64,000 bases of DNA from an uncultured Clostridia bacterium (lineage in GTDB: Bacteria > Bacillota > Clostridia > TANB77 > CAG-508). Numbering within the stretch: position 1 is the first letter of the stretch; the number at the start of each line of letters is the position of its first letter. The DNA is taken from positions 48,791 through 112,790 of the forward strand of contig CANQYM010000004.1 of the NCBI GenBank assembly GCA_947628085.1. The letters run 5' to 3'. Under the pieces are notes generated by a model, which saw only the letters and a list, made by a program, of their open reading frames with translations, did not search any database and had not been told where the DNA came from. Made by a program: the position numbers and the translations under genes. This document shows positions 1,692 through 58,477 of this stretch, piece after piece.

Positions 1692-1694
1692 AAT

Positions 1695-2306: not shown

Positions 2307-2347
2307 TTTTTTAAAAAGACTTTTAAGTAAGAAAGGAAGACGAAAAT

Positions 2348-3115: not shown

Positions 3116-3239
3116 GATAAAAATAAATAGTGCAAATAATAAAATTTAATAATAACGTATTATTAATATTAAAATAATAAAAACATAAATAACAAAATTT
3201 TAATAATAAAAAATCAATAAATAAAACTTAATATTAAAG

Positions 3240-3337
3240 AAGAGTTATATTATATTACTGAATGAAAGAAGCGAATCGAGAGTAACTGGAGTTAGCTTGA
3301 GCGAGCAATTGAAATGAAGTAATATAAAATAACTCTT
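3240..3337. repeat. IR-flanked GC-rich intergenic element, possible third member of the A/B element family, 40 nt downstream of the pncB stop
   Basis: The termini AAGAGTTATATTATATTACT and AGTAATATAAAATAACTCTT are reverse complements at 19/20 positions. The core GAAGCGAATCGAGAG...GCTTGAGCGAGCAATTG shares the GCTTGAGCGA and CGATTCGCTTC-type motifs with element A. The terminal-repeat fragment TATATTACT is also shared with A. Confidence 0.4.
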
Positions 3338-3366
3338 TTATTTATTAAGATATTTATTAAGAATAA

Positions 3367-4791
3367 TTATTTTCTAAGCATTTCTTGTTTCAAATTATAA
3401 AGCTTTTCAGATAAATCCACAAAGTATTTAGGTGGATTATCAATACGCTTTAATTCTTCCCAGAATGAATTTAAATCGTTTTTTGAATATTCAGCAATAC
3501 TTTTTACATCTGGAGAATTATAAACCAATTTTCCGCCTTCAAATATTTTTTGATGGAGCTCTTTAACATAATAATTTGTAATGTTTTTTTTCTTCCATGT
3601 AGCTAGAGGATCAAATAATGTATATTCCTCTTCTGATATTTTTTCATCATGTAAAGCAATTAAATCTCCTAAAGCCTTGTTATTTTCTTTTGAATAAAAT
3701 CTATAAACTTTTTTAAAGCTTGGATTTGTAACTTTATCTACATTTTCACTAATTTTAATTTTAGGTATTAATTTTCCATTTTTCTCTAAAGCAACTAATT
3801 TATATACGCCACCGAAAACAGGACTGCTTTTAGAAGTTATTAAATTTTCACCAACACCAAAAGAATCTACTTTAGCATCTTGCTCAAATAAAGAGGCGAT
3901 AAGTCTTTCATCTAAAGAATTTGTTACACAAATTTTGCAATCACTATATCCAGCTTTGTCTAATATTTTTCTAACTTCTTTTGATAAATATGCTAAATCT
4001 CCACTGTCTAGTCTAACTGCAACTGGTCTTATTCCTTGAGGTTTTAAAACTTCATCAAATACTTTAATTGCATTAGGTAAACCACTCTCTAAGGTATTAT
4101 ATGTATCTATTAAAAATGTGCAATTATTAGGATATATTTCAGCATATGCCTTAAAAGCCTCATATTCAGAATCAAAACTTTGAATCCAACTATGTGCCAT
4201 TGTTCCGCTTGCTGGAACATTAAAACTTTGTGCTGAAAGAGTGCAAGAGGTTCCAACAGCTCCACCAATAATTGCAGCTCTTGCTCCATAAACAGCAGCA
4301 TCAGCTCCATGTGCACGTCTAGCTCCAAATTCCATTACAGGACATTTCTTTGCTTGGTTTACAATTCTTCTTGTTTTTGTAGCAATTAAGCTTTGATGAT
4401 TTACAATTAAAAGAAGAATAGTTTCTAAAAGTTGAGCTTCTATAATAGGAGCTCTTACAGTAATTAATGGTTCATTTGGAAACACAACAGTTCCTTCTGG
4501 AATAGACCAAATATCTCCTGTGAATTTAAAATTTTCTAAGTATTTTAAAAATCCATCTGAGAAAATATTTTGACTTCTTAGATAATCAATATCTTCTTTA
4601 GTAAATTTTAAGTCTTTAATAAAATCTATAATCTGTTCTAATCCTGCAAAAATAGCAAATCCACCATTGTCTGGAACTTTTCTAAAAAATACATCAAAAT
4701 AGGCAACATCATTCATATTTTTTATGAAATATCCATTAGACATTGTGAATTCATAAAAATCTGCTATTAATTCTAAATTTCTTTTATTCAT
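3367..4791 (-). CDS. pncB: Nicotinate phosphoribosyltransferase
   Basis: The N-terminus MNKRNLELIADFYEFTMSNGYF is characteristic of PncB. I moved the start to the internal ATG at 4791, which has an AAGGAG RBS. The gene is convergent with nadE. Confidence 0.85.
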   Translation of the reverse strand: MNKRNLELIADFYEFTMSNGYFIKNMNDVAYFDVFFRKVPDNGGFAIFAGLEQIIDFIKDLKFTKEDIDYLRSQNIFSDGFLKYLENFKFTGDIWSIPEGTVVFPNEPLITVRAPIIEAQLLETILLLIVNHQSLIATKTRRIVNQAKKCPVMEFGARRAHGADAAVYGARAAIIGGAVGTSCTLSAQSFNVPASGTMAHSWIQSFDSEYEAFKAYAEIYPNNCTFLIDTYNTLESGLPNAIKVFDEVLKPQGIRPVAVRLDSGDLAYLSKEVRKILDKAGYSDCKICVTNSLDERLIASLFEQDAKVDSFGVGENLITSKSSPVFGGVYKLVALEKNGKLIPKIKISENVDKVTNPSFKKVYRFYSKENNKALGDLIALHDEKISEEEYTLFDPLATWKKKNITNYYVKELHQKIFEGGKLVYNSPDVKSIAEYSKNDLNSFWEELKRIDNPPKYFVDLSEKLYNLKQEMLRK

Positions 4792-19918: not shown

Positions 19919-21517
19919 TTAAAAATTAGAATCTATAAATTTATCAGTAGCTTTTAGTCTTTCTAAAACATATTCTTCAAATTTAGTTAGTTTTTCTTCT
20001 TCATTATTATAATTACTATCAACCCATCTAGTTTTATCTCTATTGAATGCACCAGAATCGTAAATTTGCTTAGAATAATTAGAAATAAGTTCTTTTAAAT
20101 GTGATTCGGAATAGTAAGTGTCTCGTAATTCTTTATATCTATTTTTTACTAAATCATTAATTTTAGTATCATTTAAATTCTTTAGAGCTCCGATTGCATT
20201 TAATTTAAAGTTAATAGTCTCATCAACAGCTACAGCATATTCGTTGGTAAAGTTTTTGCTAGTTTCATTATAAACATTTCCCATAGACAAATCATAATCC
20301 CAAGGAGTATAGATAAAAACATTTTTATTATGATGTTTTTTTATTGATATGAAAACATTTTTTAGAACGTCGGCTTTTGCATTGTCATTTCCTTGAATAA
20401 ATTCTTGGAACAGATAATAATCTATAACATTGTTTATATCACTTATATTATATAATTCATCTACATTTTTACTTTGCAAAAGAGTTACATAATAATTTTT
20501 TAAATATTGCCAGCCAGTAGCTTCATCTTTAGCTTCATTTCTTAATTCATAATTTGGAAGTTTATTTTCTTTATATTCTAAAACATGAGATTCAGTTTCA
20601 TCATATTGATTTTTTGAAAATAGATATTCTTGATTATTATCTATATTTAATTGTTTTTCATCAATACGATATCCTAAAGCATAAAGTCCCCAATATTCAT
20701 TATTTATAAAAAGCTCAAGAAATTTATATTGATTTCCATTAGTTATTCCAAACATATTATTTTTAGCAGAAGCCTCATACCATAAGTTGCTTGCAAAAAC
20801 ATTTCTAATTTTTTCTTGGTCATTGTATGCAGCATATAATATCCAATCATCATCTTTTCTCATACCTAACAAAGATAGGTGATTTTTTCTTGTGTTATTT
20901 CCTAAAGATTCCATTTTTAATGAAAGTTTAAAACATTTTTTAGGAAATACTGCTGATATTTGACCACGAATATGCATTTTTCCATCAGACCTTGTAATTC
21001 TTTTAGCAGATTTTTTACTATTATCAAAAAGATATAAAGACATGTTTATATCTGATGTTCGAGATAAGTTGTCAATATCATTAGACGTAATATTTAATAT
21101 TGGCAAAGTGGTACACCTTAATGCATATATTGTAAATTCAGTATCGTTATATAGCATTATTTCTACACAATCATTATTTTCTATTAAATTATCGGTTATT
21201 TTTTTATTAATTACTAATTTTAAATCGTCTTTATTAGTTTTATAACTAACAGTTGGATTATATCTATTACTATAACTTTCTATTAGGGAATAGTAATAAG
21301 TACAATTAACATTATCAAAAAGAAGCTCATAATCATTGAATTTTAATGATGTTGTAAAATTTTCATTTGTCATTGTTCTTTTACTAATTATTTCATTCCA
21401 AGTTTCATCACTAACTAATAAATCTTCATAATTACAGCTTTTATGATAAAGAAAGACAGAAAATATTAAAATTAATAAAATTAATATTATACAAATTAAT
21501 ATAATTTTTTTATTCAT
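19919..21517 (-). CDS. CotH kinase-family protein (membrane-anchored)
   Basis: A 532-aa ORF with an N-terminal TM anchor. CotH-like segments are present (WDYDLS..G, Y/N-rich). It is the third gene of a VTC - DUF4956 - CotH triad. Confidence 0.55.
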   Translation of the reverse strand: MNKKIILICIILILLILIFSVFLYHKSCNYEDLLVSDETWNEIISKRTMTNENFTTSLKFNDYELLFDNVNCTYYYSLIESYSNRYNPTVSYKTNKDDLKLVINKKITDNLIENNDCVEIMLYNDTEFTIYALRCTTLPILNITSNDIDNLSRTSDINMSLYLFDNSKKSAKRITRSDGKMHIRGQISAVFPKKCFKLSLKMESLGNNTRKNHLSLLGMRKDDDWILYAAYNDQEKIRNVFASNLWYEASAKNNMFGITNGNQYKFLELFINNEYWGLYALGYRIDEKQLNIDNNQEYLFSKNQYDETESHVLEYKENKLPNYELRNEAKDEATGWQYLKNYYVTLLQSKNVDELYNISDINNVIDYYLFQEFIQGNDNAKADVLKNVFISIKKHHNKNVFIYTPWDYDLSMGNVYNETSKNFTNEYAVAVDETINFKLNAIGALKNLNDTKINDLVKNRYKELRDTYYSESHLKELISNYSKQIYDSGAFNRDKTRWVDSNYNNEEEKLTKFEEYVLERLKATDKFIDSNF

Positions 21518-21526
21518 ATTTTTATC

Positions 21527-22195
21527 CTATACAATATCTTCTTGGTCATATTCAATTATAGAAAATTTTTCAACAAATTTTTGCTCTTTTAAATCTTTAG
21601 TTAAATCCTCAGGATTTTTTAGTAGCATTTCTATGGCATAGTCTAAACCTTTAGAAGTAAAGTTTCTGCTTTTAATTCTAAATCTTTTTACATGCTTTTT
21701 TAAAACATCAACAATATTTTTTTCTTCACAATCCTTACAGTGAATAACAAGCACATAAGGTAACTTTCCAAATTTTATATTTTCTAAAACTGCTAAAAGT
21801 ATTGTTACTGCAATAGAAGTTAGAATTGCTACTTCATATAATTGACAGCCACATATAATTCCAATATATACAGACCAAAGAATATATAACATATCTATTG
21901 GATCTTTTACTGCTGTTCTAAATCTTATGATAGCAAGAGCACCAATTGTTCCTAAAGTAATAACAATATTAGATTGTAAGCATAAAATTATTGTTGATAT
22001 GAAAAATGGTAATATTGTTATTAAAATATTAAATTGTTTATTATAAAAACTTCTGTGTGATACAAATCTGTAAATTAAAAATTCATAAACTGATAATACG
22101 AATACAACTAATAAAACAGATAGGGTAGTGGTAACTCCTATATCAATTCCAAATGAATTAAAAATGTTATTAAAAACTTCAATTATTCTACTCAT
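21527..22195 (-). CDS. DUF4956-like integral membrane protein
   Basis: A 222-aa ORF with 4-5 TM helices. It sits between the VTC and CotH genes, and its start overlaps the VTC stop. Confidence 0.45.
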   Translation of the reverse strand: MSRIIEVFNNIFNSFGIDIGVTTTLSVLLVVFVLSVYEFLIYRFVSHRSFYNKQFNILITILPFFISTIILCLQSNIVITLGTIGALAIIRFRTAVKDPIDMLYILWSVYIGIICGCQLYEVAILTSIAVTILLAVLENIKFGKLPYVLVIHCKDCEEKNIVDVLKKHVKRFRIKSRNFTSKGLDYAIEMLLKNPEDLTKDLKEQKFVEKFSIIEYDQEDIV

Positions 22196-22890
22196 AATAA
22201 ATTACCTATTACTTTCTTTCTTCCTATATAATATTTTGAAAAAGAAGTTTGATTAAATCCTGTTGAACAAACTATATTTTTTATATATCCTGGTAAAATA
22301 TCATCAAATTTCACTTCTAAAATATGATAATTATGTTCTTGCAAAGGAAAAGCTACATAATTTCCAGTAAGAAAATTATCAATATCATAAGAAGCAGTGA
22401 TATTTGTATCGATTGTTATACGAATATTTAAAATTGGCTCTATAAAAGCTGTTCTTTCATAGTTAATAATTACTTTAGGTTTAAAACTTTTTGTAATAAT
22501 ATCTACTATGAATTCTTTTAGTAGTGCTTTGTCTGTTTTCCAAAAGATATCCATATAATCACTAGAAATTATTTGATTAAATTCTTTAGTAGTTAAGCTA
22601 CATTTTCTTTTATGACATTTTCCAGATAATTTTTCTTTTTTCTCTAAAAATAGATTTGTACTTAAATCATTATAATATCTAATTCTCCATTTTGACCTTT
22701 TAAAATCACCAGATTCAACTTGTTTTGCTGATGTGTTTTTATAATCATCAAAATACAAACTATGTATAATATAATTTCCATTTTTTGTTGAATTTTCATC
22801 GAGCTGTAATAATGGGGAGAGTCTAGATTTTAATAATTCAAGATTGCAATTTGATAAGATATATTTCTGTTCATTCCTATATTTTTTCAT
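22192..22890 (-). CDS. VTC (polyphosphate polymerase / CYTH-like) domain protein
   Basis: The N-terminus MKKYRNEQKYIL carries the ExKY motif of VTC/CYTH domains. I moved the start to ATG 22890, which has a GGAGG RBS. Confidence 0.55.
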   Translation of the reverse strand: MKKYRNEQKYILSNCNLELLKSRLSPLLQLDENSTKNGNYIIHSLYFDDYKNTSAKQVESGDFKRSKWRIRYYNDLSTNLFLEKKEKLSGKCHKRKCSLTTKEFNQIISSDYMDIFWKTDKALLKEFIVDIITKSFKPKVIINYERTAFIEPILNIRITIDTNITASYDIDNFLTGNYVAFPLQEHNYHILEVKFDDILPGYIKNIVCSTGFNQTSFSKYYIGRKKVIGNLL

Positions 22891-22972
22891 AAAAACCTCC
22901 GTGCAAATTTTATCATAGGATTCTAATAAAATCAATATTTTTGTGTATTTTAAAAGAAATTAACATAAAATA

Positions 22973-23001: not shown

Positions 23002-23183
23002 GGAAATGCATAGCCTTTATACAGGCTATTTGAAATAGAGATTAGGTTTATAAGAAAGGAGATGAAAAGAGAAAACAAAGAGTAACTTTAAGTGAATAGG
23101 AGATGATAACAACAGAAGACAACTAGTAACTTTTGAGAATCTCTGCTAACTCGTTGGACAACGATAGAATGGAGGCAAGTAAC

Positions 23184-25334
23184 ATGACGTATTTGATCAT
23201 CACATTGATCGTGGCAATCACGGCGATTGCTTATGCCATACGGAACTACATTTACCTCAAGGGACTTTCCGAAGGGACTAAGGAGATGGTTCAAATCGCG
23301 AAATTCATTCGCGATGGTGCGAACACTTTTCTTAGGAAACTGTACGCCATTGTTATTCCGGTTATGCTAGCAATAGCTCTTGTGCTGTCAGGAATGCTCG
23401 ACTTCTCAGTCGCTGTTGCATTCATTATTGGCACATTAATGAGCGCAGCGGCTGGAATCTTTGGTATGCAGGGTGCTACTCGTGCGAATGTGCGTGTGGC
23501 AGAAAAGGCAAGAAGCACCCAAAACATCTTTGAGACCCTAAAAGTTGCTGTCCTAGGCGGTAGTATAAATGGACTTTCTACAATGGGCTTCGCTTTGCTT
23601 GGACTGGTGATTGTTTCAATTCTGTATCATAACCAGTTGTTTGACATTAGCGAAACCACGAATAGTTGGGGAATTGGTTACATCCCGATTTCTCAAATAC
23701 TTACCGCCTATGCCTTGGGATGCTCTGTAATTGCCATCTTTGCACGTGTTGCGGGTGGTATATATACAAAGGGTTCAGACACTGCAGCAGATCTTGTCGG
23801 TAAAACGGAAGAACACATTCCAGAGGATGATCCCCGGAATGCTGCGGTTATCGCTGATAACGTTGGCGACAATGTTGGCGATACAGCAGGACTTGGTTCC
23901 GATTTGCTCGAATCCTTTATGGGAACGATTGTATCTACGATAGTGCTCTTGATTCACACTATTGTGAGTTATCTGGCAAGAAACATGGAGTTCAGTCAGA
24001 AACTCTTTGAGAAACTCTATATCTTTCCCATTGTTTTCGTGACTATCGGGCTATTCTCCTGTATGCTCGCTCTCTTCAGATTTTTGAAGAAGAAAGCACC
24101 GGTCGACGATGAGCCAATTAACCCTCATGCAGAGCTTAACAAGTTCACATGGACTTCTGCTGGCCTTACAGCAGTTCTCAATATAGCCTTCACGTTTATG
24201 CTTTTCGGAGGCGAAAATGTTGGTGGTCTGCCTTTTAAGTTTGGATTTGCTTCACTGATTATTTCTGCCGTTGTTGGTATTGTCGCAGGTATTGCCATTG
24301 GCATTATCACTGAAATTTATACGAGCGATGAAAAATCAACAACGAAGAAAATCGTCGAAATTGCTCCCAAAGGGGCATCTTTGGTTATAAATCAAGGTAT
24401 GGCTGGAGCAATGAAGTCGGTTCTTCCGACAGTAATTGTATTGGCCTGCATTGTTCTTATACCATATGCCTGTGCCGGTTTTATTGGAATTGCGATTTCT
24501 GCAGTTGGTATGCTGTCATTTGTTGCAGCAACAGTTACTGTGGACTCGTATGGACCAATTGCCGACAATGCTGGAGGAATTGCCGAAATGGCAAAACTCG
24601 GCGATGATGTCCGCAAAATAACCGATATGCTAGATGCAGTGGGAAATACCACTGCTGCAATTGGTAAAGGACTTGCAATTGGCGCTGCTTCTTCTACCAC
24701 TATTGGTATGATGATTGCTTATGTTTATATCTTTAATCCGCCCACAGCGGAGGTAAGTTTAAACATGATCAACCCGCTAGTTTTCGCAGGACTGCTAGTG
24801 GGTTGTGCAATAACATACTTCTTCTCTGGTATGCTAATCGAGGCAGTAGCTGAAGTGGCTGAAAAAATGGTTCAGGAAGTGCGTAGGCAGTTTGCAGAAA
24901 TCCCTGGACTTCGTGAAGGGGAAGCACTGCCGGACTATAATGAGTGTGTTGAAATCGCTACAGTGGGAGCAATCAAAGAAATGAAGCTTCCTGCAATAAT
25001 TGCGATTATACTACCGATCGTTGGTGGGTTCATTATGGGACCGCTATTTGTTGGTGGCATACTCATGGGCGCTATTCTGTCTGCCATTGTTCTTGCAGTC
25101 TTTTGCGGAAATTCTGGTGGAGCATGGGATAACGCCAAGAAGCTTGTTGAAGCTCTTGGCAAAAAAGGCTACCCAGAACACATCGCAACAGTTGTGGGAG
25201 ACACTGTTGGCGATTCACTCAAAGATACTGTTGGACCGAGCTTGGACATATTTATCAAGATTATGTCCACGGTATCAATATTATTCGCACCACTCTTTTC
25301 TGTATACAACCTAATAAATCTTATCAGCAAATAA
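23184..25334 (+). CDS. hppA: Membrane-bound proton/sodium-translocating pyrophosphatase (H+-PPase)
   Basis: The DNVGDNVGD and VGDTVGD motifs are present in a 16-TM architecture. The start is set at MTYLIITLIV after GGAGG. GC is roughly 45-48% against about 25% in the flanks. A terminator-like hairpin lies at 25362-25385. Confidence 0.9.
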   Translation: MTYLIITLIVAITAIAYAIRNYIYLKGLSEGTKEMVQIAKFIRDGANTFLRKLYAIVIPVMLAIALVLSGMLDFSVAVAFIIGTLMSAAAGIFGMQGATRANVRVAEKARSTQNIFETLKVAVLGGSINGLSTMGFALLGLVIVSILYHNQLFDISETTNSWGIGYIPISQILTAYALGCSVIAIFARVAGGIYTKGSDTAADLVGKTEEHIPEDDPRNAAVIADNVGDNVGDTAGLGSDLLESFMGTIVSTIVLLIHTIVSYLARNMEFSQKLFEKLYIFPIVFVTIGLFSCMLALFRFLKKKAPVDDEPINPHAELNKFTWTSAGLTAVLNIAFTFMLFGGENVGGLPFKFGFASLIISAVVGIVAGIAIGIITEIYTSDEKSTTKKIVEIAPKGASLVINQGMAGAMKSVLPTVIVLACIVLIPYACAGFIGIAISAVGMLSFVAATVTVDSYGPIADNAGGIAEMAKLGDDVRKITDMLDAVGNTTAAIGKGLAIGAASSTTIGMMIAYVYIFNPPTAEVSLNMINPLVFAGLLVGCAITYFFSGMLIEAVAEVAEKMVQEVRRQFAEIPGLREGEALPDYNECVEIATVGAIKEMKLPAIIAIILPIVGGFIMGPLFVGGILMGAILSAIVLAVFCGNSGGAWDNAKKLVEALGKKGYPEHIATVVGDTVGDSLKDTVGPSLDIFIKIMSTVSILFAPLFSVYNLINLISK

Positions 25335-43787: not shown

Positions 43788-44912
43788 TTAGTTTTTAATT
43801 ATCATTTTTAAATATTCTTTCATAAAATTATTTAAATCGCCATTCATAACTGCTTCAACATTTCCAACTTCATAATTAGTTCTATGATCTTTAACCAATG
43901 TATATGGACAAAAAACATAAGATCTTATTTGACTTCCCCATGCAATGTCTTTTTGAATTCCTTTTAATTCTGAAATTGTTTCTTTGTTTTCTTTTTCTTT
44001 TAAATCAATTAATTTGGATTTTAACATTCTCATTGCTGTTTCTTTATTCATAGTTTGAGAACGCTCAGACTGACAAGAAACAACTATATTTGTTGGAATA
44101 TGAGTAATTCTTACTGCAGAATCTGTTTTATTTATATGTTGTCCACCAGCACCAGATGACCTATATGTATCTATTCTTAAATCATCTGGATTAATATCAA
44201 CTTCTATATCGTCAGATATTTCTGGTAAAACTTCTACTGAAGCAAATGATGTATGCCTTCTTCCCCCACTATCAAATGGAGAAATTCTAACAAGTCTATG
44301 AACTCCCATTTCTCCTTTTAAAAATCCATAAGCATTTTCACCAGAAATTAAAAATGTAACACTTTTAATTCCAGCTTCATCACCTTCTAAATAATCTAAT
44401 TCTTTTACGCTAAATCCATTTGAAAAAGCCCACTTTGTGTACATTCTATAAAGCATTTCTACCCAGTCCTGGCTTTCTGTTCCACCAGCTCCTGGATGCA
44501 TTGTGATAATGGCATTATTATTATCATACTTTCCTGAAAATAATGTTTGAATTTCTAAATTACTTATACTTTTTTGTATCTCATTAGAATTATGTAATAG
44601 CTCTTTTAAAAGCTCTGCATCATGTTCTTCTTCTAATAAATCATTCATTTCCATTAAATTATCTAACTCTGAACTTATTTGCTGAAAAGAATTAATTTTC
44701 TTTTGTAAAGTCTTAATTCTAGCAAATATTTCATTTGATTTTTGGCTATTATCCCAAAATCCTTCTTCTAATGATTCTTTTTCTAGCTTTTTTAATTCAA
44801 GCATTAAAGATTCGATTTTCATCGAATCTTTAATTTGAATTAATTTAGCCTTTTGCTCTTCTAATAATCTTTTATTTTCTTCTAACTCTAACACAAAATT
44901 AATACCTTTCAT
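43788..44912 (-). CDS. prfB: Peptide chain release factor 2
   Basis: The SPF motif (RISPFDSGGRRHTSF) and GGQ motif (SGAGGQHINKT) are present. It is a single uninterrupted 374-aa ORF. The start lies 2 nt after the stop of the giant gene. Confidence 0.85.
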   Translation of the reverse strand: MKGINFVLELEENKRLLEEQKAKLIQIKDSMKIESLMLELKKLEKESLEEGFWDNSQKSNEIFARIKTLQKKINSFQQISSELDNLMEMNDLLEEEHDAELLKELLHNSNEIQKSISNLEIQTLFSGKYDNNNAIITMHPGAGGTESQDWVEMLYRMYTKWAFSNGFSVKELDYLEGDEAGIKSVTFLISGENAYGFLKGEMGVHRLVRISPFDSGGRRHTSFASVEVLPEISDDIEVDINPDDLRIDTYRSSGAGGQHINKTDSAVRITHIPTNIVVSCQSERSQTMNKETAMRMLKSKLIDLKEKENKETISELKGIQKDIAWGSQIRSYVFCPYTLVKDHRTNYEVGNVEAVMNGDLNNFMKEYLKMIIKN

Positions 44913-44914
44913 AT

Positions 44915-47900
44915 TTATTTGGTTTTATTTTGAATTGTTACATTTTGATTTTCTACTGTATTTGTATTTATATTCTTTTTTGTAGATATTGTGTTTGTTG
45001 TATTCGTAGTATTTGTTGTATTTTCTAAATCTATTGTATTGGTAAAGTCATTTTCTTCTACAATGTTTTCAGTATTAGAATTTTCATCTACTCTGTTATT
45101 ACTACTATTAACTATATTTCCTTCTACATCACTTGTAATAGTATTTTCTACTGTATTTGTTATATTTAAATCATCTAATTGAATTCCAGTGATGTTTAAT
45201 AGATTATCTGCTTCTAATGAAATACTTTTAGCATTAGGATTTTTATCAAATGGATTAATTGTGAAATCCTCTGTTTCTTTTTGTATTTGTCTGAAGTATT
45301 GTTTTTTAACAGCTGTGCTGTTTGAAAGATTTCTATTTCCAGATTGAGCGTCTTTTATTAATGCTTCAAGATATTTTTCGTAAATTTCTTTTGCGTTTAT
45401 ATATGTACCTTGATCATCATAATGCTCTCCTAATTTCTTATATCTGTCTAATTTGTATTTTTTGAATGTAATGCTTTCATCATTCATTATATAACGTAAT
45501 GCAGTTAAATCTGTTGTATTTCCGCCTTTACCATTTTTAATACCAACATATTTTTGACTATAGTAAGCACAAAGTCCATCATAATACCCACGTTCTCCAG
45601 CCATTTGCCATGCCAAGTATTTAAAGTTTGCTCCATCTGGACGGTCATTATCTGCATGTGGTTGATACCAGTGAATGTTGAAAATTGAATCTGTGTCTGC
45701 TCCTGGTGAACGTTGTTCATATTCTTTAACACCTGGTCTTAGCATTATACGATTATCCCAAAGTGCTTCCATAGATTTTAAGTTCATTCCTTGAACTCTA
45801 TCTGTTGTAAGTGGTGTGTATGCAACTACATCATCACCTTCGTCTTGATGAGCTTCATCAACTTGTGGATAAGATACTTGTACTGCAAGTTTTGCCTGAT
45901 CTTCTGGAGATAGTGTAAAGAATGCTTTTGCTTCTATCCAGTCTAAGAAGTCATTTGTATTAAAGTAATTTTTATAAAATACTGATAATTTCTTATCATT
46001 TTCAACTGTTGCACGATAGAAGTTTTGAGTTGTATTTTCTTTCATAAGGTCATCATCAAATATGTTTGGACTTACCCAACCATCTCTATAATATTGTTGT
46101 AAGAATCCTGCAGCATAGTCTTCTGCTCCACCTCTACGTCCATAACCATTTAAGAAAATTTTACTATCTTGGTTATGAAGAGTTTCGTGTGTTCCAACTC
46201 TAAAGTTATCTAGCATTTTTATAACAACCCAGAATACTTCATTTCCGTTTGCATAAGCGCCTCCTGAAGTACCTGCCCATCTATTTATAGCTTCAATGAA
46301 ATATTTGTGATATGGTTCTTGTGTTGTTAATGGATTATTATATACAGTTGCATTTCCTTGGCCTGTATAAGTTGTTCTCATATCATAGTTTACATCGCAA
46401 TATTTATTTAAAGTGTCTTTGCCCCAATATGTGTATCCAAATTCGTAGAATGCTTTAACTTCTTTTAACCAAACATTTACTTTCTTTTCGAATGCTGCAA
46501 TTTGATCTGGGTTGCTAGGATCTGTCATATAAACACGTAAAGATCCAAAGTATGCTTGTGTTGGTGAAGCAATTGCATAAGTACTATTTTCTGGAACTGT
46601 ACATAGTGGTAAGAAATCATTTTGTACTTTACCATCTTTCTTTAGATGATCCCATAATGTGTAATCAACGCCTTCTTTATCAATGCTTACTGTATAATAT
46701 CTTCCACCTTTCCAATGTTCCTTAAACCAAGTATTTCCATCTGTATAATGTGTTAATGTTTGTACATAGTAATCTAAGAATAATCCTAAGTTAGTTAATT
46801 TAGTATATTTTGCAAGACCATTGTTATAGAATCCTGCTGTTCCATTTGTTGCGGAATTTGTTCCAGTAATAAGTTCATTTGTGATATTTGCCATAGTCAT
46901 TCTATTATCAAACATTTCATTTGCATGGAACATTATTGAGTCTGCAACATTTATTCCATCCATATCTAAATTATACCAATATGTGAAATAATTATATGCA
47001 AATAACAAGTTCTTTAGTTTTCCAGTTCTTACTAAATCTTGTTTAATTAAGTTATCTAAAACTTCACTTTCAAAACTCATACTGTAATCCATATTAACTA
47101 AAGTATTTATAATAAAGTCTTTAATATGATTTTTAGTATAGTTTTCAAAATGTTCTTTATATAATCTACTATCTTCTCCTGAAACAATTGGCTCTAAGTC
47201 GTTATCATATGTGTAAGAAGAAGCCTCAGTAACAAGATAATTTATAATGTCTAAGTTAGGATTTATAATATACTTATTGTAGTTATATCCAACATTTAAA
47301 TCACTTATCATATATGATGCTACATTTCCATAGTAATCATCAAAATCTATATGATATTTCTTTGAAGTTTTATCTGTAAATACAATTCTTATTTCATTTA
47401 AGCTATTATAATTTTCTGTTGTAAGAGAAGAAATCATATTTCCTGATTTATCATAAGGAATAACATATTTAACTATTTTTGTGCTTAATTCGTTATCAGC
47501 AGGAATTTTGTTTCCATCTCTTATTATTTCTTTTGCATCATAGAATGGCATTATTTTGTACATATTGTGATATACAATTTCTTTATTTGAATCATAGTCT
47601 GGTAATTTATGTACTCTGTTATAATCTGGAATATATACTTCTGTGTTTTCTGGTTGTTCACCATCATCACTAAATGAAGCTGATACAGATTTAAGTACTG
47701 GTAAATTATTAATTGATGTATTACCATCTATTATCCAAGCTTGATCACTAAAATCTAATTTTTTAAAGAAATTGCTATCTATGTCTTTTGCATCTACTTC
47801 TTTTACAGCATTTGATAATGTATTTTTTAAACAATTTGTTTCTTTTAATTGATAATTGTCTTTTGAACCTTCTGCAAGAGTTGCTGTATTTTTATTTTCA

Positions 47901-50900
47901 TTGTAAATAGTATATATTTTACTATTTGTATTCATTAAACTTAAATTATTCTTTAATGTTGCTGTACCTCTTGCTAAAATACCACCATTTCCAATATATT
48001 CATTTCCAAAATATGGACTTACTTTTAAATTAACAATATTGTTTATTATATTAGAATTTCCACTTGCTTGTGCAACAAATCCTGAGTTAACTTGCCATCC
48101 TGATGGCATTGTTCCTGCAATGTAACAATTTTGAATTGTTGAATCTTTTAAACTAACTACTGCACCAGCATTATTTTGATTGCTATACATTACACTAAAG
48201 TTAAGGTTTACAACATTACATTTATCTATTACAGAACCATTTGTTATTTCATAAGCTATACCTGCATTATTGTTTCCACCACGAATTGTTACAAGGTCAA
48301 TATTAAGATTAGATAAATTACTATGATTTGCATTTAAAACAACTGTTGCTTGACTTCCTTGATTAATAAAATCAGTTCCCCTAAATACAATATTTTCAAC
48401 TGTTGCATCCTTTAATAAACTAAAGAATGGTTTATGAAGATTGCTTATTGTATGTCCATGTCCGTTTAAAGTACCTTTAAATTCAAAATCTATAATTGCT
48501 TTTGAATTTGTATTTACCGCATATTCATCTAAGTCATAATCTTTATCTAAATCAAATGTTCCTGTAGGATTTAATCTCATTTTGTCTACTAAAGATTGGA
48601 AAGATCCATCATATTGATATCCAGAAGAACTGCCTTCTAGAATATCTAATGTAACTTCTAGTGGTTTTAATTCTTCTTTTCCTGTAAATACCATTGCATC
48701 CGTGTATGCTAAAACTAATCTTAACTTTCCATTTTCCACATTATAATCTGTAATATTGCTATAGAATGGAGCAATGTTTCTCATAGAAACTTTAACTAAA
48801 CAATTTTCTAATACTTGAAGATTGCTTTCTGTTAAGCTATTAACCTTTTCTGCCCTACCATCATCTCCAAATTTATAAAGTGCAATATCTACTATATCTT
48901 TCATTTCAATATATCTAGTGTTTATGCTAATTATTTGATAGTAGATGTTCATATTTGTGTAATGGTTTGGATCATTTGTTTTATCTAAATCTCTATCATA
49001 ATCTGAATAAATAGTAGCAAAATATTTTTCTGTACTTGTTTTTTCAAAAGTAATTCTATTTGTTCCTACATTTAAATCTGATGTAGATAATGTGACTGGT
49101 TGATTATATTCGTCTTTTATTTCTAATCGTAGCTTATTATTTGATTTATCAGTATCTTCAATATTAATGTCTACATTAAGAATATCTCCATTATCAGAAA
49201 TTGCAGATTTAAGCTCTTTAACTTTTACTACATCTTTTAATATTTCATAATTTATATTTGCATTTTTAATCTCAATTTCATTACCACTATTTAGTGTTAC
49301 AGAAGAAATTGGTAAATTAACTTTTCCAGCTTTATCTGAACCTTTAATAGTTAAAGTATAGGTGTTATTTTCATCTTTTTCTGGTTCATAAACAGTATCT
49401 TTTATTTTAACTGTTTCAACACATAATTCTGGAACTTTTGTTGTGCTTTCAAATTTTACTAAAATGTCTTCATTCTTCTCAAAATATTCTGTTTTCTCAC
49501 CTTTTGAATTATAAGTTTCAATATTTTTAATGTCTACACTATAATCTCCTGTTAGCATAAATGGTTTTTCAAAAATTGATTTATCCATATATGAATTATC
49601 ATCACTAGATGTTTCATTTTTTAGAATATCTGTATCTAAGTCGAAAGAAGCAAATACTTCAAATTTTGAAAGTTCATCTTGTTTTGCATTAAACTCTAAT
49701 TCATTATGTGTTACAGTTTTACTGTGCTCAACATTTACATTTTGATCGTTATCATTTACTCTTGCATAAATGTTATTTGAAGTTAATATATGGTCATTAT
49801 CTACAAGATCAAAACTAAATTTAACTTTATTTTTATCTAATTGATTTTCTACTTTGTAATTTCTAATTTCTGGCATATCTTTTAGAACATCAATTTGATC
49901 TTTTCTAATAAATTCTTCTGTTGTTCCATTAGTGAATTTAATTGCTGAAACATCAACATCTTGAACTCCAGTTTTATTATCTGCTGTATAGTAAACCCTA
50001 TATTGTTCATTATCTAATGTTTGAACATCATAATCTTTTCCATTTATTACTAAATAAGAAATACCTACTGCTTTATCTTGATTTGTGTGATCTTCTGGGT
50101 CTATTTTAATAACTGTTGTACTACTAATTGTATAATCAATTGTAATTGTTTCTCCTTTTGAAGGATATACAGTTGAGAATTTGCTTCCTAAAATTGAACT
50201 ATTAACACTTGATTTAAACTCTCCATCAAATGCTGGCCATTCAATATAAAATTTATCATATCCAGGAATTTCATAAAGTTTAGCTCTAACTTGTAATTTG
50301 TAAACAGCAGTTGGTGGATTTGGAATATCAAATTCAACAGTTGTATCTGTTCTTTTTACTTCTTTTTCAGCAATAAGTCCATTTTGTGAATCCATTAATT
50401 TAAATGTAAACTCAGATGCCATCTTTTTATCTTCATCTACTAATTTAAATCTAAATCTTACTTTTTTCTCTTTAACATCTTCTGAATACTCAAGAATGTT
50501 AAATGTTGGCATTTCTTGAACTACACTTACAGGTATTCTGCTAACACCATCTTTTTCTGGTATATCTAAGGATACACCATTTTCCAATATTACTTTTTGA
50601 TAAGTAATTAATGTTAAATCAACACTTTCTGCTCTAAATGGAACAATATAACTATTTTCTCTTTCTCCCTGCTCTACATCATATTCTTTATCATTAACTA
50701 TTACTTTTACTACTTTATAAGGAGTTCCAGTTGTACAATCAAATGTTAAGAAACTACTTTCATTATCTTTTTTCCTTGATAAATAATAGAATCCAAAACC
50801 ATCTTCAAAATCAAGTTTATATGTTTGGTTATTTGTTAATAAGAATGTTTCATCATATATTTTTTCTGTTCCTGTTGTTGTAAATTCTTCAGATTCATCA

Positions 50901-53900
50901 CTTTCTTCACCAGAAATAGCATTTGTGATGAAGTTTGCTATTCTTCTAAAGATACTTACTTTTTCTGTTGGTTTCAAATCATAATTTACATCAACTGTAA
51001 CATTATAGTTATGATTAAACTCAGTCATGCCAAGTTCTTTTAATTTATATTCATAATCATTTCCGCCTTTGGTTAAATCTTTTTCAGCAACTACTTTTCC
51101 ATTATTTGTCATATCTTTTATAATCATTTTTGGATGTGGTTTTGCCAAAGACTCATCTAAGTCATTTATTTTGAATGTTGCCTTGCTTCCATCTTCTGCA
51201 ATCATAAAGTGTGTTAATGTTGGCTTATCTTTTAATACTTGTATGCTACATGGTTCTACACCTTCTGCATAGCTTATATGGTCTGTATCTATTAGACTAT
51301 TTCCAATTTGAACTTTAGTTACCCTTTGCTCAAAAATACCTGTTTTCTTTGGTGAAATTAAAGTTACGGTATAAGTATCATTTACAATTTCACCTTTTTC
51401 ATTTTTAACTTTCACTGCATCAAAGCTATCTTCACCTATATAAATTTTTCTTACTTCCTGGTCAACATTTGTATTTAATTTAACTGTTATAGTAACTTCT
51501 TCTTCTTTATTTGAGTATTCTTTATCAATTGTTTGTTCTACAACAGTAGCTCTTGATTCAGAAATCATACTCTTTGTAAATAAAGCTGTTTCTTCAAATG
51601 TTTCACCATCGCCAATATCATGATTTGCTCTTAATTCAATATGATATTCATTTAATTTTAATAATGGCATTTCAAGAGTATTTACATCAGTTGTGCTAAA
51701 TTCAGAAATATCTTCAGATGTAGCTATGATTGAACCAGCACTATTTTTCATATATGCTTTTAAAGACTTAACAGTTGAGTCCTCATCAACTAATTTATAT
51801 TTAATTATAGCTAAATTGTCTTTTGTATTTTCGTTAATATCAGTTACTTCAATTGCAGTTGGAAGAACTTTTTCATGAACATATCTTAAATTTCTGTTAA
51901 TTTCAAAAGTTTTTGTTCCTATTCCTACACTCTGTAATCTAAGTATGTTAACGCCTTTTTCTCCAGGGTCTAAATCCAATTTATAAATATTATCATTTCC
52001 TTTAGTAACTGGATATTTTATATCATTTATTGTTATGCTATCTACGTCTTTATAAGATAAAACGCCATTTTCAAAAGAAATATGAACTTTTGAGTTTGTT
52101 GGTACTCTCTCTGATATAGAAAGATTTTTCATTCTAAAGTCAACATTGTTTTTATCTGTAATTTCTAATTGCTCTTCTTTAACTATTTCATTTTGAACAT
52201 CTTGCCTATCTTCTCTTAAGCTAAAGTTATTTTCAAGAATAATCTTATATTGTTTTCCTGTTTCTAGATTTTCAAAAGTATGAGTATTTGCTCCCACTGT
52301 AATTGTTTCTGATTTTACTTCTGTATCACTTTGAACATCTATTAATTTAAGCTTGCTTTCTAATAATGCATTATCTGTATCTGTTATATTAAATTTAACT
52401 ATTATACTATTTTCATGGTTTGTAGAAGTATAGTCTGTCATTGTAGGTTTATCTTTTAATACTTCAAATTTTGCTGTTAAATCTTTTCCTTCAAACTCAG
52501 TTTCAACTTTACTACTATTTAGTTTTACAGAATCGATTGTTAATTCTTGTAATCCTGAAACTGTATTAGTAACAATATCTACATAATATTGATGTTCGCT
52601 ACTTCCATCTTGAACTTTTTTAACTTGATATTCTGTGCCTTCAAATTTCTCATCTTTTAAGTCATTTACTACAACAGTTTCTGGCTCATAAGATGTTGAA
52701 TTACTTGAATTAAATCTTAATTGTATTTGTTCTCCTTTAGCAAAATAACTAGAAGGCTCATTTGACTCTGTTTTGTAGGTTGCTAAATTAGAAACTGTTA
52801 GTTTATAGTCAGATACTAAAGTAAAGTTTTTATTCATTGTAATTTTATTTGTATTATGATCTTCTTCTGTTCCTGCTGTTATTTCATCATTATCTAAGTC
52901 ATAATCAACTTCAACATTTAATGTATGTTCTTCATCTGGCTTAACTGTGACATTAAATGGATTAGAACCTGAATGAAGTGATATTTCTTGATCATGAATA
53001 CTTGCTTTTCCACCAGTTACTGCATTATCTTGGTCTGTTATTGTTATTATGAATGATACAATATTTTGATTTAAATGGTCTGTTGATGTTATATTAACTG
53101 TTGGAACAGCTTTTAAAACTTCAACCTTTTCTTGATGTGCCTCACTTAATGTTACAGTTTGACCATTTGCAAAATAGATTTTATTAATATTAATATTTTC
53201 TGTTGTTGCATAATCTGCTACTTTAAATATCATTTTGTAATCATTTGTTGTTCCAGCAGCTTGCAAATCATATTCTGAATTATCATTTACAACTACTTTT
53301 GTTGGAGCGGAATTTACATTTGATAAAATTTTATAAGAAATTTCTACTGTTTCACCTTTATTTGGATATCTATTTGATACACTATTTGTAGTAATAGCTG
53401 CTGTTGGCACAATTTCAACTTCGTTTTCACTTTCTAATAATTTTTCTCTAGAATGTGAAAGTCCATCTACTAAATTAAAGTCTCCTAAAATTTCTACTTT
53501 ATATTTTTTTGCTTCTGAAACATTAAAGTTAACTTCTCTAATATCTTTTTCTACAGTTTTATCTTCAATAGTATTTCCTTGTTCATCTTTTAAAACTATA
53601 TATAATTTTGATAAAGTTTTATCATCATCTTTCACATCATAAGTTACTTTAATTCTTGTATTTTGAACATTTTCAAGTTTAATATTATTTGCTATAGGTG
53701 GTGTTTTGAATATTACAGTTTTAACATCATCTGTAACTTCTAGTTTTTTATTATTTGTTAAACTTACACTATCTATTTTAATTTCTGTTCTCTTTCCTAG
53801 TTGTTCATTAGAAATCATATAGTCAAAAGTATAAGTATCTGTAGTATTTTCTACTTTTTTAGCAAGATATGAATTTTCTCCTACTGTAATATTTGCTAAG

Positions 53901-56900
53901 TCATATATTGATTTATTCGTAGACTTAAATTGTAATGTAACTCTGTTATCTGTTCTATATACATTTAGTACAACAAGGTCTGATACTTTAAGCTCATATT
54001 CTTTAACAAAATATAATTCTTGTATTCCAAAAGATTCTTCTGCTTGATTTTCATTATTATTAATGTCAAAGTCTAAGTCATAAGTTATTTTTAGCTCTAC
54101 ATTATACTTTTTGTATTCTGCTACATCTAAGTTGTAGTTATAATTATCTTTTGTAAGAGGAACTTCAGTTTGTTCACCTGTTTCTGCATCTGTAATTAAA
54201 ATTCTGCCACTTACAAATGACATATCATCATCAGTCATTTTAAAACTTAAAATAGGTTTTATATTATCTAAATTTAATCTTAATTCTGAAACAGAAAGTT
54301 TATCTTTTAATATAAATATTGTTACAGATGGGCTATTTTTAATTTCTAATTCTTCATCAGCACAAACAACTTTTGTTACTTTAAATTCTTTATTTCCAAC
54401 CTCTTGAGGTATTACTATTTCTGCTTTATATGCTCCTGTTTCATCTTTATGTAGGTTAGTTGCTAAAATACCATTTATTTCTACACTTTGAATATCTTTA
54501 GAAGTATTAGATTTTACAGTAAATGTTATTTCTGCTGTTTTTCCTTTTTGTGCATATTTTTCTGCAGAAACACTAGTAATTTTTAAGTTAACTCCTACTT
54601 TTACTTCTTTTTCATCAGAAATAGCTTCTTGAAGATGAGATTTTGCGTCATTAATTTCGTAATCTGCCAAAATTTGTACGAAATAAGTTCCTTCAGCATA
54701 AATTTCATTTGAGGTAAATTTAATCTCATTAGGGTCTGTAATTTCAACCTTATTAATAATTTCGTTATTTAATTTTAAAACAGCATATTTTTTTGATAAT
54801 GTGTTATCTTTATCTGTAAAATCAATATTTTTAACAGTTATAACTGTTTTTTCACTATTTACAGATACTTCTCCTATTGTTGCTGTTGGTTTATCTTTAA
54901 ATACAACGATTGGGTTTAAGTTTTGGAATAAATCACTATTTGTATTTTTATTAAATACCTTTAAGTTGTTTAAAATTAATTCTTCTAAAGTTATTTCTGT
55001 TCTTTTATTATTTGCTTTTTCTAATGGAATTTCTACTGTATAGCTATTATCATCTTTAACAGCTTTATATTCATGTTTAACTCCATTAAATCCAATTAAT
55101 ACTTTTTCAATATAATTTTTAGAAGAGTTTTCACTTGAGAATTTTAATATTACTTTTCCAGATTCTGAATCCAAAGTAAATTTAACATCTTTAAGTGTTA
55201 AATTATAATTTAATTGGATATTAAAATCATGACTTACAAAAGTTTTTGTATTCTCATTTTTTTCGTTATTATTATCATTATCTAAATCATAAGTAATTTC
55301 TAGAGAAATATTATAATTTTTAAATTCTTCAATATTTTCTAATTCATATGTTTGTATTATAGTTCCACTTGCATGTTTAATAATTGGCATTTTTTGTATG
55401 TCATTTGTTTCTAAATTTTTAATAATTATATTTCCACTAACGAATGTAGATTCTAAATCTGTTAGTGAAAAACGAACTTTTGGCTTTCCACCTTGTGAAA
55501 CTTCTGAATCGTCTATTCTTAAGTTTTCTATACTTAATTCAGATTTTAATATTTCTGTTTGTAAATTACATGCACTCTGAATTTCTTGCTCGCCATAATA
55601 AATTCTTGTTGCTTTAACATCAAATATTCCATTTTCTGGTCTTTGAGTTGGTGCTTTGAATATTACTTTATATGTTTCATCATTTACTTTTTCAGCAGAA
55701 AGTTTAACATTATTTACTAAAATATGTGTTACTTCTTTATTTGTGTTATCTGATATTACATATGTTACTTCTACATTCTCTCCTTTTTTAACAAATGTTG
55801 GAATACTAGATTTTTCTTGAACGAAGTTTGCAATTATTGGGCTATCTATTTTTTCTTCATACTCTTTTGTTATTTTTTCTTCGCCATTTCCAATGTTGTA
55901 AGTAACTTCTATTTCTACTTTGTATGAACCAGATTCAGTAATATCTATATTTCCAGAATAAATATTTGAATCTTGATTTTTCTGTAATTCTACTGTTTTT
56001 ACAACATTATTGTTCTCATCCTTTACTAAAGCTTTTACAGAAATTATACTATTTTCTTCATCAACAGTATTTACTTCAAAGTTTACTTTTCCCTCTAATA
56101 TTTTTGTAGAAACGCTTTCTATAGAAGGTTTTTCTTTTATGTATGAATATTCTAATGTTTGATTAACAGATGCTTCATAACCATTTTCTAGTCTAACAGT
56201 TTGAAGTGTTATTTGATTTTTATAATTTGTTTCTTTTGGTAATTCTACTTTGTAAACATTATTTTCTTTTTGAACTGCATACTCTTTATCATTAACAACT
56301 ACTACTTTTACATCATAATAAGATTCTTTTGCATTTTCAAAAGAAAGAATTAATTTTTCATTTTTTGAAACTTTAGATGTTAAATTTAAGTTCTTAGCTT
56401 CAAATCCATATTCTCTAATAAATTTTAAATCTCCATTTTTATTTTCAAAAATATCGTCTATGAAGTCTACTTTTGTAGTAAAATCTTCAGCAATGCTTTC
56501 ATCTAAAGCGTTATGATCTAAGTCATATTCAACATCAAAATCATAATGATATGTTTTTCCATCGCTTAAATTTACTGCAAATTTATTTTCTCCTATCTTT
56601 ATATCATTAAATTTTGATTCAAATACAACATTTCCTTCTTCATCTTTTATTATGAATTTAGCAGTTTTACAAGCTTTATCTGGGTCATTTAAAGTAAAGC
56701 TTATTTCTGGAACTTCTTTCTTATCATCTATTTTAAAATTCTCAACTGTTGGTTTATCTTTTAAAACATCTATAAGAATTGTATATCTAGCTCTAACTGT
56801 TATGTTATTAGCAAGCTTAATATCAGTAATATTTAGCTTTTGTACTCCAGCTTTATTAAAAGCATCTAAAGTTACTTGATAATGATTTGACTCACTGCTT

Positions 56901-58477: not shown

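Follow-up and report, generated by a model that had tools for sequence, protein, structure and literature searches.

The DNA considered here is a stretch of 64,000 nucleotides (64 kb; the whole analyzed stretch is called the window below) of contig CANQYM010000004.1, which comes from an uncultured, low-GC, spore-forming Clostridia bacterium of the rabbit gut. Its dominant feature is a single giant gene on the minus strand. From the N terminus, its product carries a signal peptide, a cohesin, two transmembrane segments (TM1 and TM2) separated by a short loop rich in Lys and Arg (K/R loop), a type-I dockerin, a long stalk of immunoglobulin (Ig)-like domains and a metalloprotease unit assignable by alignment to peptidase family M26 (Table 1). 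The open reading frame (ORF) starts with ATG, continues without interruption and occupies 21.2% of the window, in agreement with an earlier note, made from the letters of this DNA, that had described a single ORF of 4,520 amino acids (aa) filling 21% of it.

Integrity and domains of the giant gene

An assembly artefact, in which repeats would have been collapsed or joined into a chimeric ORF, or two genes fused through a sequencing error, deserves consideration since the source is a short-read metagenome and a related contig encodes a truncated product of 240 aa (P0001). It is nevertheless highly improbable. The same protein, identical over its full length, is found on three public contigs, and contig-truncated copies lie beside an identical prfB gene in other ENA samples. 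A metagenome-assembled genome (MAG) of the same species in GTDB has a 4,505-aa copy, 99% identical and with an equal module count, whose indels are confined to the low-complexity linker (aa 366 and 432-443) and the tail. Many MAGs contain continuous orthologs of 3,818-6,181 aa, and Clostridium tertium genomes contain a member of 3,417 aa. Moreover, the stalk modules are merely 12-34% identical to each other, and the gene holds no long DNA repeats, only imperfect 18/36-nt tandem repeats in the Pro/Thr-rich part of the linker (57115-57328), so that the repeat check proposed in the earlier note speaks against collapse. Repeat collapse and chimeric assembly were rejected on these grounds; the giant ORF is real and reproducibly assembled, and within the limits of short-read data an artefact is excluded. 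The truncated product P0001 (L002, 308-1030), a cohesin-TM protein 62% identical to the N terminus, had also been considered as an unfused anchor gene and was rejected as a likely frameshift artefact. It stems from a 1,066-bp contig of 1.26x coverage and diverges in a frameshift-like manner, just past KKGKIV, from L009, a MAG locus of the same species with an identical N terminus and a continuous ORF of 4,447 aa.

When the whole 4,520-aa protein was scanned with hmmscan, Dockerin_1 alone was returned, and the cohesin and both M26 domains were missed; the whole-protein NCBIfam scan was likewise near empty. Rerunning the Pfam library on six segments recovered the cohesin, Peptidase_M26_N and Peptidase_M26_C with clear significance, so that all three domain types named for checking beforehand (cohesin, dockerin and M26) score above their cut-offs, the cohesin and M26 once the protein is split. 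Giant low-complexity proteins are better scanned piecewise for domains.

In the N-terminal part, the cohesin matches PF00963 with an expectation value (E) of 5.5e-15 (56.2 bits against a cut-off of 24.1), and AlphaFold2 (AF2) models it as a beta-sandwich with a predicted local distance difference test score (pLDDT) of 70-89. Each of the top 22 Foldseek matches of this model is a solved cohesin module (best E 1.2e-8), those of Clostridium perfringens GH84C and GH33 coming first (E ~1e-8) and cohesins of C. acetobutylicum and Ruminococcus flavefaciens being also represented. The cohesin-like beta-sandwich that had been read behind the signal peptide is thus confirmed by profile, model and fold search. 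An LPXTG motif is absent before TM1 of the window protein, where the site reads ...LETEKTFPW, and no C-terminal sorting signal is found in it; the protein is accordingly not of the sortase-anchored (LPXTG) type. A sortase-type hydrophobic segment with a K/R tail does exist (TM1 and SRINKRGK), minus the LPXTG. Hydropathy, the loop SRINKRGK and two helices in the AF2 model of the N terminus (aa 188-211 and 217-245) agree with the two TM helices and short positive loop described in the earlier note; the loop would be cytoplasmic. The AF2 check that had been suggested for this region resolved the cohesin and both helices and did not resolve the dockerin. The latter matches PF00404 (Dockerin_1; E 1.6e-8, 35.1 bits against a cut-off of 22.9) and has the expected pair of calcium (Ca)-binding loops, DINQDGVVDEKD at aa 247 and DINNDGKVDGSD at aa 281, which follow the form DxNxDGxxDxxD and lie ~34 residues apart, so that its reading as a type-I dockerin holds. 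It begins ~9 residues past TM2, and the cohesin is placed on a ~40-aa linker before TM1. Besides this pair, no other cohesin or dockerin is encoded within the 64-kb window.

The protease assignment rests on two profile matches and on solved structures. Peptidase_M26_N covers aa ~3176-3392 (E 9e-20, 71.4 bits against a cut-off of 27.7) and Peptidase_M26_C covers aa ~3718-4353 (E 1.8e-28, 99.6 bits against a cut-off of 22). In a phmmer search of the PDB, the unit aligns end to end with IgA1 proteases of Gemella (7uvk/7uvl, E ~1e-49) and Streptococcus pneumoniae (6xja/6xjb/7jgj, E ~1e-39), a single alignment placing residues 217-1336 of the 1,446-aa C-terminal segment against residues 1024-2168 of 7uvk (E 1.4e-49). 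The aligned unit covers the N-terminal domain, the beta-helix middle domain and the catalytic C-terminal domain of the solved enzymes. These profile matches and alignments substantiate the earlier reading of a zincin motif with a downstream Glu as M26/ZmpB-like. Judged from them, the window protein belongs to peptidase family M26 (ZmpA/B/C-type), and its M26 unit is complete, with catalytic residues intact. A GLUG domain, proposed ahead of the zincin, was not recovered: the Pfam GLUG model has no match in the window protein, and the 'FKGTLNGHGHTISNL' stretch falls inside the M26_N match. Among the relatives, the GLUG model (PF07581) is precomputed for P0003-P0005 only.

Between the dockerin and the protease lies a linker rich in Asn, Ser, Pro and Thr, followed by the stalk. 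An extra half-module (aa 490-571) precedes modules that start at aa 572, 780, 977, 1193, 1390, 1590, 1788, 2007, 2201, 2415, 2653, 2865 and 3080, with a spacing of 194-238 aa (mean 209). The modules form two roughly alternating subtypes. An AF2 model of one module, with the 13 internal copies as the alignment, has two beta-sandwich domains joined by a low-confidence loop of ~20 residues (pLDDT 79). Consequently, the earlier count of about 13 tandem two-domain Ig-like modules stands, as does their fold, and the size of ~230 aa then assigned to them is replaced by a mean of 209. No specific fold relative of the modules was found with Foldseek, which returned generic Ig, FN3, MG (macroglobulin) and SiiE-BIg matches at E ~1e-3. 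At ~4 nm each, the ~27 Ig-like domains would form a rod of an estimated ~100 nm if extended. The low-complexity linkers and the Asn/Thr-rich tail listed in the earlier note are present as described (aa 300-489 and 4411-4520).

Table 1. Features of the giant gene and its product, with positions in the window (a slash marks a candidate cleavage position)
Feature	Residues	Position	Strand	Basis or remark
Whole ORF, 4,520 aa and stop codon	1-4520	44915..58477	-	Identical product on 3 public contigs
Signal peptide, MKK...VNVYA/ND	1-23	58409..58477	-	Sequence; conserved in orthologs
Cohesin	27-145	58043..58399	-	Pfam PF00963; AF2 beta-sandwich; Foldseek
Acidic linker with conserved KDGLxEGESxP motif	146-185	57923..58042	-	Occupies the LPXTG position of relatives
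TM1	186-210	57848..57922	-	Hydropathy; AF2 helix 188-211
Short K/R-rich loop, SRINKRGK	211-218	57824..57847	-	Sequence; K/R-rich across family members
TM2, ending at candidate signal-peptidase site ISA(236)/F(237)	219-237	57767..57823	-	Compare Gemella ARA/M
Type-I dockerin, two Ca-binding loops	246-294	57596..57742	-	Pfam PF00404; loops by pattern
N/S/P/T-rich low-complexity linker	300-489	57011..57580	-	Same-species indels here
Stalk, half-module and 13 two-domain modules	490-3290	48608..57010	-	Repeat analysis; AF2; Foldseek
Complete M26 unit	3291-4410	45248..48607	-	phmmer against PDB; Pfam M26_N and M26_C
HETLH zinc-binding/catalytic motif	4097-4101	46175..46189	-	Aligns with HEMTH; present in every ortholog
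Glu4119, predicted third zinc ligand	4119	46121..46123	-	Aligns with Glu of GPEF in IgA1 protease (7uvk)
N/T-rich low-complexity C-terminal tail, without sorting signal or TM	4411-4520	44918..45247	-	Same-species indels

Spread and conservation of the family

Word-indexed homolog searches gave merely 2, 4 and 5 matches, and the family was seen through a genome scan and an exhaustive phmmer search. In the genome scan, which covered one genome per species with the M26 part as the query, 19 loci were found with 51-99% identity in that part. Seventeen of these are in uncultured Clostridia MAGs from rabbit samples ('Lapin-xxx'), one is in a 'Lapin' MAG titled Bacilli, and the remaining one is in an uncultured Clostridium sp. 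MAG from another project. The ORF is complete in 11 loci (3,818-4,872 aa), and all 11 products have the signal peptide, cohesin, TM1, K/R loop, TM2 and HETLH; the dockerin Ca-loops are kept in nine of them and the dockerin is degenerate in two (L023 and L024). No neighboring or partner gene is conserved across the family, prfB/cps synteny being limited to the three closest genomes. One MAG, Lapin-011__bin86, has three paralogous giant-M26 loci (L020, L022 and L025) with 53-71% identity to the window M26 unit, which points to expansion and divergence within one genome.

The phmmer search used aa 1-315 as the query against 1.84 billion cluster representatives (E <= 1e-3) and gave 831 matches. 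Among the best 150 of these, 139 have an N-terminal cohesin, and 84 combine the N-terminal cohesin with two hydrophobic segments and a dockerin loop. An M26 domain is present in 31 of the 33 cassette representatives of at least 2,000 aa, the other two ending inside M26_N or the beta-helix region, and no cargo other than M26 was seen among those 33. The N-terminal cassette is therefore tied exclusively to M26 cargo. These cassette-M26 proteins measure 2,029-6,181 aa, mostly ~2,400-2,900 aa. They include a cultured member, the C. tertium protein WP_271845996.1 (3,417 aa, 'ZmpA/ZmpB/ZmpC family metallo-endopeptidase'), and others in Erysipelotrichaceae MAGs (MDY5251951.1) and an Enterococcus columbae MAG. 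In a Pfam scan of five distant members, Dockerin_1 and/or Cohesin scored above cut-off in four, and P0146 had a sub-threshold cohesin alone. The homolog search that had been recommended in other clostridia thus met with relatives both in rabbit-gut Clostridia MAGs and in C. tertium, and the domain combination, which the earlier note did not recognize, is no isolated oddity but that of a widespread conserved family, as the orthologs and the 84 representatives attest. M26 enzymes are widespread in anaerobic gut Firmicutes (Clostridia, Erysipelotrichaceae and C. tertium).

Three short members, P0132 (306 aa, MEG2457451.1, from a Bacilli MAG), P0067 (305 aa) and P0080 (324 aa), stop directly past the dockerin. 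They contain the signal peptide, cohesin, (LPXTG), TM1, TM2 and dockerin and nothing more, and may be stand-alone cassettes or gene fragments. A two-gene version occurs at L003 (970-3164) and L004 (776-2427), where a sortase-type cohesin gene is separated by 15 bp from a dockerin-like gene. The product of the first gene (P0002) consists of a cohesin, NAKTG, a TM and RKRSRK; that of the second has a signal-anchor, one dockerin-like loop (GDVNKDGFVDQID), Ig-like domains and leucine-rich repeats. This arrangement is an unfused pair of cohesin-anchor and dockerin-cargo with a different cargo.

Processing and anchoring at the cell surface

A signal peptide, an N-terminal LPXTG, two TMs and a putative second signal-peptidase site are common to all streptococcal Zmps, in which the second TM has been proposed to be a second signal peptide; variable repeats of 131-1,561 aa and a protease of ~1,200 aa follow (PMC3518915). 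The mature M26 enzyme is said to begin ~56 residues past the LPXTG (PMC9637739). In the full-length Gemella IgA1 protease (7uvk_A) we find the series KLPNTG, hydrophobic segment, KGKNKSRK, hydrophobic segment and ARA/MED. The TM pair that the earlier note had presented as a hairpin anchor is consequently real and is not a new invention, being the canonical N-terminal module of M26 proteases. The two-gene arrangement of L003 and L004 had prompted the idea that the hairpin arose when a cohesin-anchor gene and a gene for a signal peptide, dockerin and enzyme were recently fused. This idea was demoted, as M26 proteases that lack a cohesin and dockerin already have the two-TM module as a standard part.

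Many relatives of the window protein have a bona fide LPXTG immediately ahead of TM1 (LPQTG, LPYTG, LPKTG, LPNTG, IPKTG, VPLTG and others), the LPQTG being that of P0069, whose cluster includes WP_271845996.1. In these relatives, the K/R loop holds 4-9 Lys or Arg, and TM2 ends with G-T-(I/V)-Y-A, AYA/F, AHA/F or VYA/F at a site 5-12 residues before the dockerin 'KG(D/E)LNxDG'. The window clade has lost the LPXTG and kept a small residue 9-10 aa ahead of the dockerin (ISA/FK in the window protein; TIS/FR and IIT/FK in relatives). Read in this way, the cassette family is the M26 blueprint to which a cohesin ahead of the LPXTG and a dockerin just behind the predicted second signal-peptidase site are added.

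The interpretation we put forward, on which we are evenly divided between acceptance and doubt, is that the polypeptide is cut after TM2 and that the stalk and protease, tipped by the dockerin, bind back to the cohesin that is retained. Signal peptide 1 would initiate Sec export, by which the cohesin would end up outside; TM1 would halt the transfer, with the K/R loop remaining inside; and TM2 would resume export of the other ~4,280 residues. Signal peptidase would cleave past TM2 (ISA236/F237), and the N-terminal fragment (cohesin, TM1 and TM2) would remain in the membrane; in relatives with an LPXTG, sortase would link the cohesin to peptidoglycan instead. The released dockerin would bind the retained cohesin in a Ca-dependent manner, so that the enzyme's own pro-fragment would keep it attached without a covalent bond. 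The P/T/S/N-rich linker (aa 300-489) would cross the cell wall, and the ~27 Ig-like domains would carry the catalytic head past the capsule layer, where it would cleave a host glycoprotein, the precedents being IgA hinge or mucin-type substrates.

Pairing of the cohesin and dockerin of the same protein is a plausible element of this model, and it is strengthened by their strict co-occurrence. The sole cohesin and the sole dockerin of the window both reside on the giant protein, and an independent parallel is offered by L003 and L004, where the sortase-type cohesin gene is followed by the gene of a surface protein with a signal-anchor and a dockerin-like loop. We would, somewhat tentatively and with less than even confidence, go further and see here a one-gene, self-assembling anchor and cargo, with a signal-peptidase cut after TM2, a sortase cut before TM1 where the LPXTG is kept, and re-docking at 1:1.

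Several observations weigh against cleavage and re-docking. The site past TM2 is weak in several orthologs (Thr, Val or Ile at -1), and in the window clade Lys or Arg stands at +2, the LPXTG is absent and positive charges past TM2 are as many as those in the K/R loop; by sequence-based rules, the window-clade site and its charges are thus unfavorable for a cleaved signal peptide, and the positive-inside rule is ambiguous. The (-3,-1) rule is satisfied in 74 of 81 sequences, but this rule is permissive and the count has no control. In the shallow-alignment AF2 model of the N terminus, the dockerin has a pLDDT below 50. The orthologs L023 and L024 keep the TM pair with a degenerate dockerin, and docking is therefore dispensable in some lineages. 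Finally, P0132, P0067 and P0080, if complete, would release a bare dockerin, which cleavage and re-docking leaves unexplained.

Part of this evidence suits a permanent hairpin, the model of the earlier note, in which TM2 stays uncleaved and one chain is held by TM1 and TM2. The cohesin-dockerin contact would then act in cis, as a clasp at the stalk base, or in trans, giving head-to-tail clusters or lattices. Two clear TM helices with an 8-residue K/R loop between them are what such an anchor would look like, and the closeness of the dockerin to TM2, together with the ~40-aa linker of the cohesin, makes a cis contact sterically easy. The weak or atypical signal-peptidase site of the window clade, with Lys at +2, and the possible stand-alone cassettes P0132, P0067 and P0080 also agree with it, and the loss of the LPXTG in this clade would be understandable with the hairpin itself as anchor. 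However, relatives have textbook AXA-type sites past TM2 and the LPXTG ahead of TM1, cleavage behind the second TM is reported for the homologous streptococcal module (PMC3518915, PMC9637739), and the strict conservation of the cohesin-dockerin pair would need a separate explanation. A permanent hairpin, the main rival reading, is, to our judgment, rather doubtful. Since relatives keep both the LPXTG and the AXA-type site, and since TM2 of M26 proteases has been proposed to be cleaved, processing and re-docking is at least as likely.

The two modules could instead recruit different partners, the cohesin capturing other dockerin proteins and the dockerin plugging into a separate anchoring cohesin, to form a small non-cellulosomal assembly comparable to the toxin and glycosidase complexes of C. 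perfringens. The nearest structural relatives of the cohesin, those of C. perfringens GH84C and GH33, reportedly bind the dockerins of other enzymes, and related stand-alone, sortase-anchored cohesins exist in metagenomes (P0002 and P0007-P0009). We consider this recruitment unlikely: the window encodes no further cohesin or dockerin, no neighboring gene is conserved across the family, and both modules are on one polypeptide in 84 representatives, with M26 cargo only, which is the pattern expected of obligate partners.

It is important to consider what self-docking would mean for this enzyme class. M26 proteases (IgA1 protease, ZmpB and ZmpC) are major streptococcal host-interaction factors, and their retention on the cell after processing has so far only been modelled. 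In the cassette family, a recognizable high-affinity binding pair flanks the M26 processing module, so that re-docking on the protein's own pro-fragment is directly testable. If cleavage and re-docking are true, this would be the first case in nature of a cohesin and a dockerin that are encoded in cis and are obligate partners of each other, and it would provide a concrete model for the cell retention of N-terminally processed M26 proteases, including the pneumococcal IgA1 protease. It would also extend cohesin-dockerin biology from multi-enzyme fiber degradation to the self-anchoring of a single protease, and a self-docking cassette could serve surface display engineering.

Related systems, substrate and neighboring genes

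The closest known counterparts are the streptococcal and Gemella M26 proteases (ZmpA-D), with which the window protein shares the signal peptide, the two TMs with a K/R loop, the variable repeats and a C-terminal protease of ~1,100-1,200 aa with HExxH and Glu, as well as N-terminal attachment with a distal catalytic head. It differs from them in having a cohesin in place of the short LPXTG segment (relatives have the cohesin ahead of the LPXTG), a dockerin directly past TM2 and no G5 domain, and in its host, an anaerobic gut Clostridia bacterium. The spacer also differs, consisting here of ~2,800 aa of ordered Ig-like modules and in the streptococcal enzymes of 131-1,561 aa of largely unstructured repeats. 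Metallo-IgA1 proteases have a G5 domain in their N-terminal half (PMC9637739), and neither the whole-protein nor the split Pfam scans gave a G5 match in the window protein.

Other systems share single aspects of the architecture. The C. perfringens glycosidases and toxins (GH84C/NagJ, GH33/NanJ and mu-toxin) likewise use cohesins and dockerins outside plant-fiber degradation, on enzymes that degrade host glycans or host proteins; their partners are on different proteins and form hetero-complexes, whereas here one polypeptide holds both, with the two-TM module between them and a protease as cargo. Cellulosomal anchoring scaffoldins, such as the sortase-anchored ScaE of R. flavefaciens and SdbA/OlpB, which are anchored by S-layer homology (SLH) domains, also retain a dockerin partner through a cell-bound cohesin, and relatives of the window protein show a cohesin, LPXTG, TM and K/R tail as in a sortase-anchored cohesin. 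In contrast to scaffoldins, anchor and cargo are one translated chain here, with one cohesin, one dockerin and no domain of a carbohydrate-active enzyme (CAZyme) or carbohydrate-binding module (CBM). Indeed, no CAZyme or CBM match above cut-off was obtained in the window protein, which, with its single cohesin, is therefore not classed with cellulosomes or amylosomes. A cut-and-hold logic is known from Clostridioides difficile, in which the precursors of SlpA, with its high- and low-molecular-weight (HMW/LMW) parts, and of CwpV are cleaved and the parts are held non-covalently at the cell surface; those proteins use unrelated domains for the interaction and are cleaved by unrelated mechanisms, with no part played by a cohesin or dockerin. 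As in giant Ig-repeat or 'periscope' proteins (SiiE and SasG/Aap), a long tandem beta-sandwich rod would project a functional head, ortholog length varies (3,818-6,181 aa) and the Foldseek matches include BIg domains of SiiE. The repeats are however old and diverged (12-34%), not near-identical recombining units, and the head is a protease rather than an adhesin domain; near-identical tandem repeats at the DNA level, which define periscope proteins by driving length variation, are not what the gene contains. In full-text literature searches, no account was found in which a cohesin or dockerin is combined with M26, with IgA1 protease or with C. tertium. Enzymes of this type are known, and the sequences are public under automatic names; we found no description of a cis cohesin-dockerin pair around the M26 processing module.

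M26 proteases are known to act on the IgA1 hinge and on glycoproteins of mucin type or of the cell surface. No NCBIfam assignment among ZmpA-D was obtained for the window protein, which scored 151 bits for ZmpB, 136 for ZmpA, 119 for ZmpC and 63 for ZmpD against cut-offs of 3,000, and its M26 unit is 26-37% identical to the best database relatives outside its clade. With paralog scores of 63-151 bits and at most 37% identity to the nearest proteins outside the clade, the substrate is not assignable from homology. By analogy with the family, a host IgA or mucin-type glycoprotein is plausible. Rabbits are described as having 14-15 IgA subclasses, distinguished chiefly by their hinges, and the authors attribute this diversity to bacterial protease pressure (PMC6082545, PMC10435986). 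We hypothesize that the expansion and divergence of M26 genes in rabbit-gut Clostridia could be the bacterial side of an arms race over the IgA hinge; these enzymes are candidate bacterial proteases for the long-standing idea of microbe-driven hinge diversity in rabbit IgA.

Regarding the genes around the giant gene, prfB (release factor 2; 43788-44912, minus strand) starts 2 nt past its stop codon, and this short gap suggests co-transcription. The prfB gene is a single uninterrupted ORF of 374 aa, with no sign of a programmed +1 frameshift. On the other side, immediately upstream of the giant gene, positions 58624-59586 of the minus strand encode a protein of 320 aa that has a membrane anchor at its N terminus and the zincin motif HEMMH and for which no Pfam family was found. 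This gene is missing at the same position in a sister species (L002), where the cohesin start comes right after a DUF2207 gene.

Two departures in base composition were seen elsewhere in the window. A ~500-bp island at 62400-62930 has 50-55% GC in a genome of ~25% GC and contains a 113-aa ORF on the plus strand (62502-62843), which has GGAAGGAG as its ribosome-binding site and is closely followed by a terminator-like hairpin. Neither Pfam nor, even at E <= 1, Rfam gave a match to the ORF and its region; the island may represent a foreign gene of recent acquisition. The rise in GC at 23-25 kb corresponds to an ORF (23133-25334) for a Gly/Ala-rich membrane protein of 733 aa, which by eye we take to resemble an H+-pyrophosphatase. 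Beside it lies an ordinary cluster of genes for CotH (19919-21517), a DUF4956 protein (21527-22195) and a VTC-domain protein (22192-22935).

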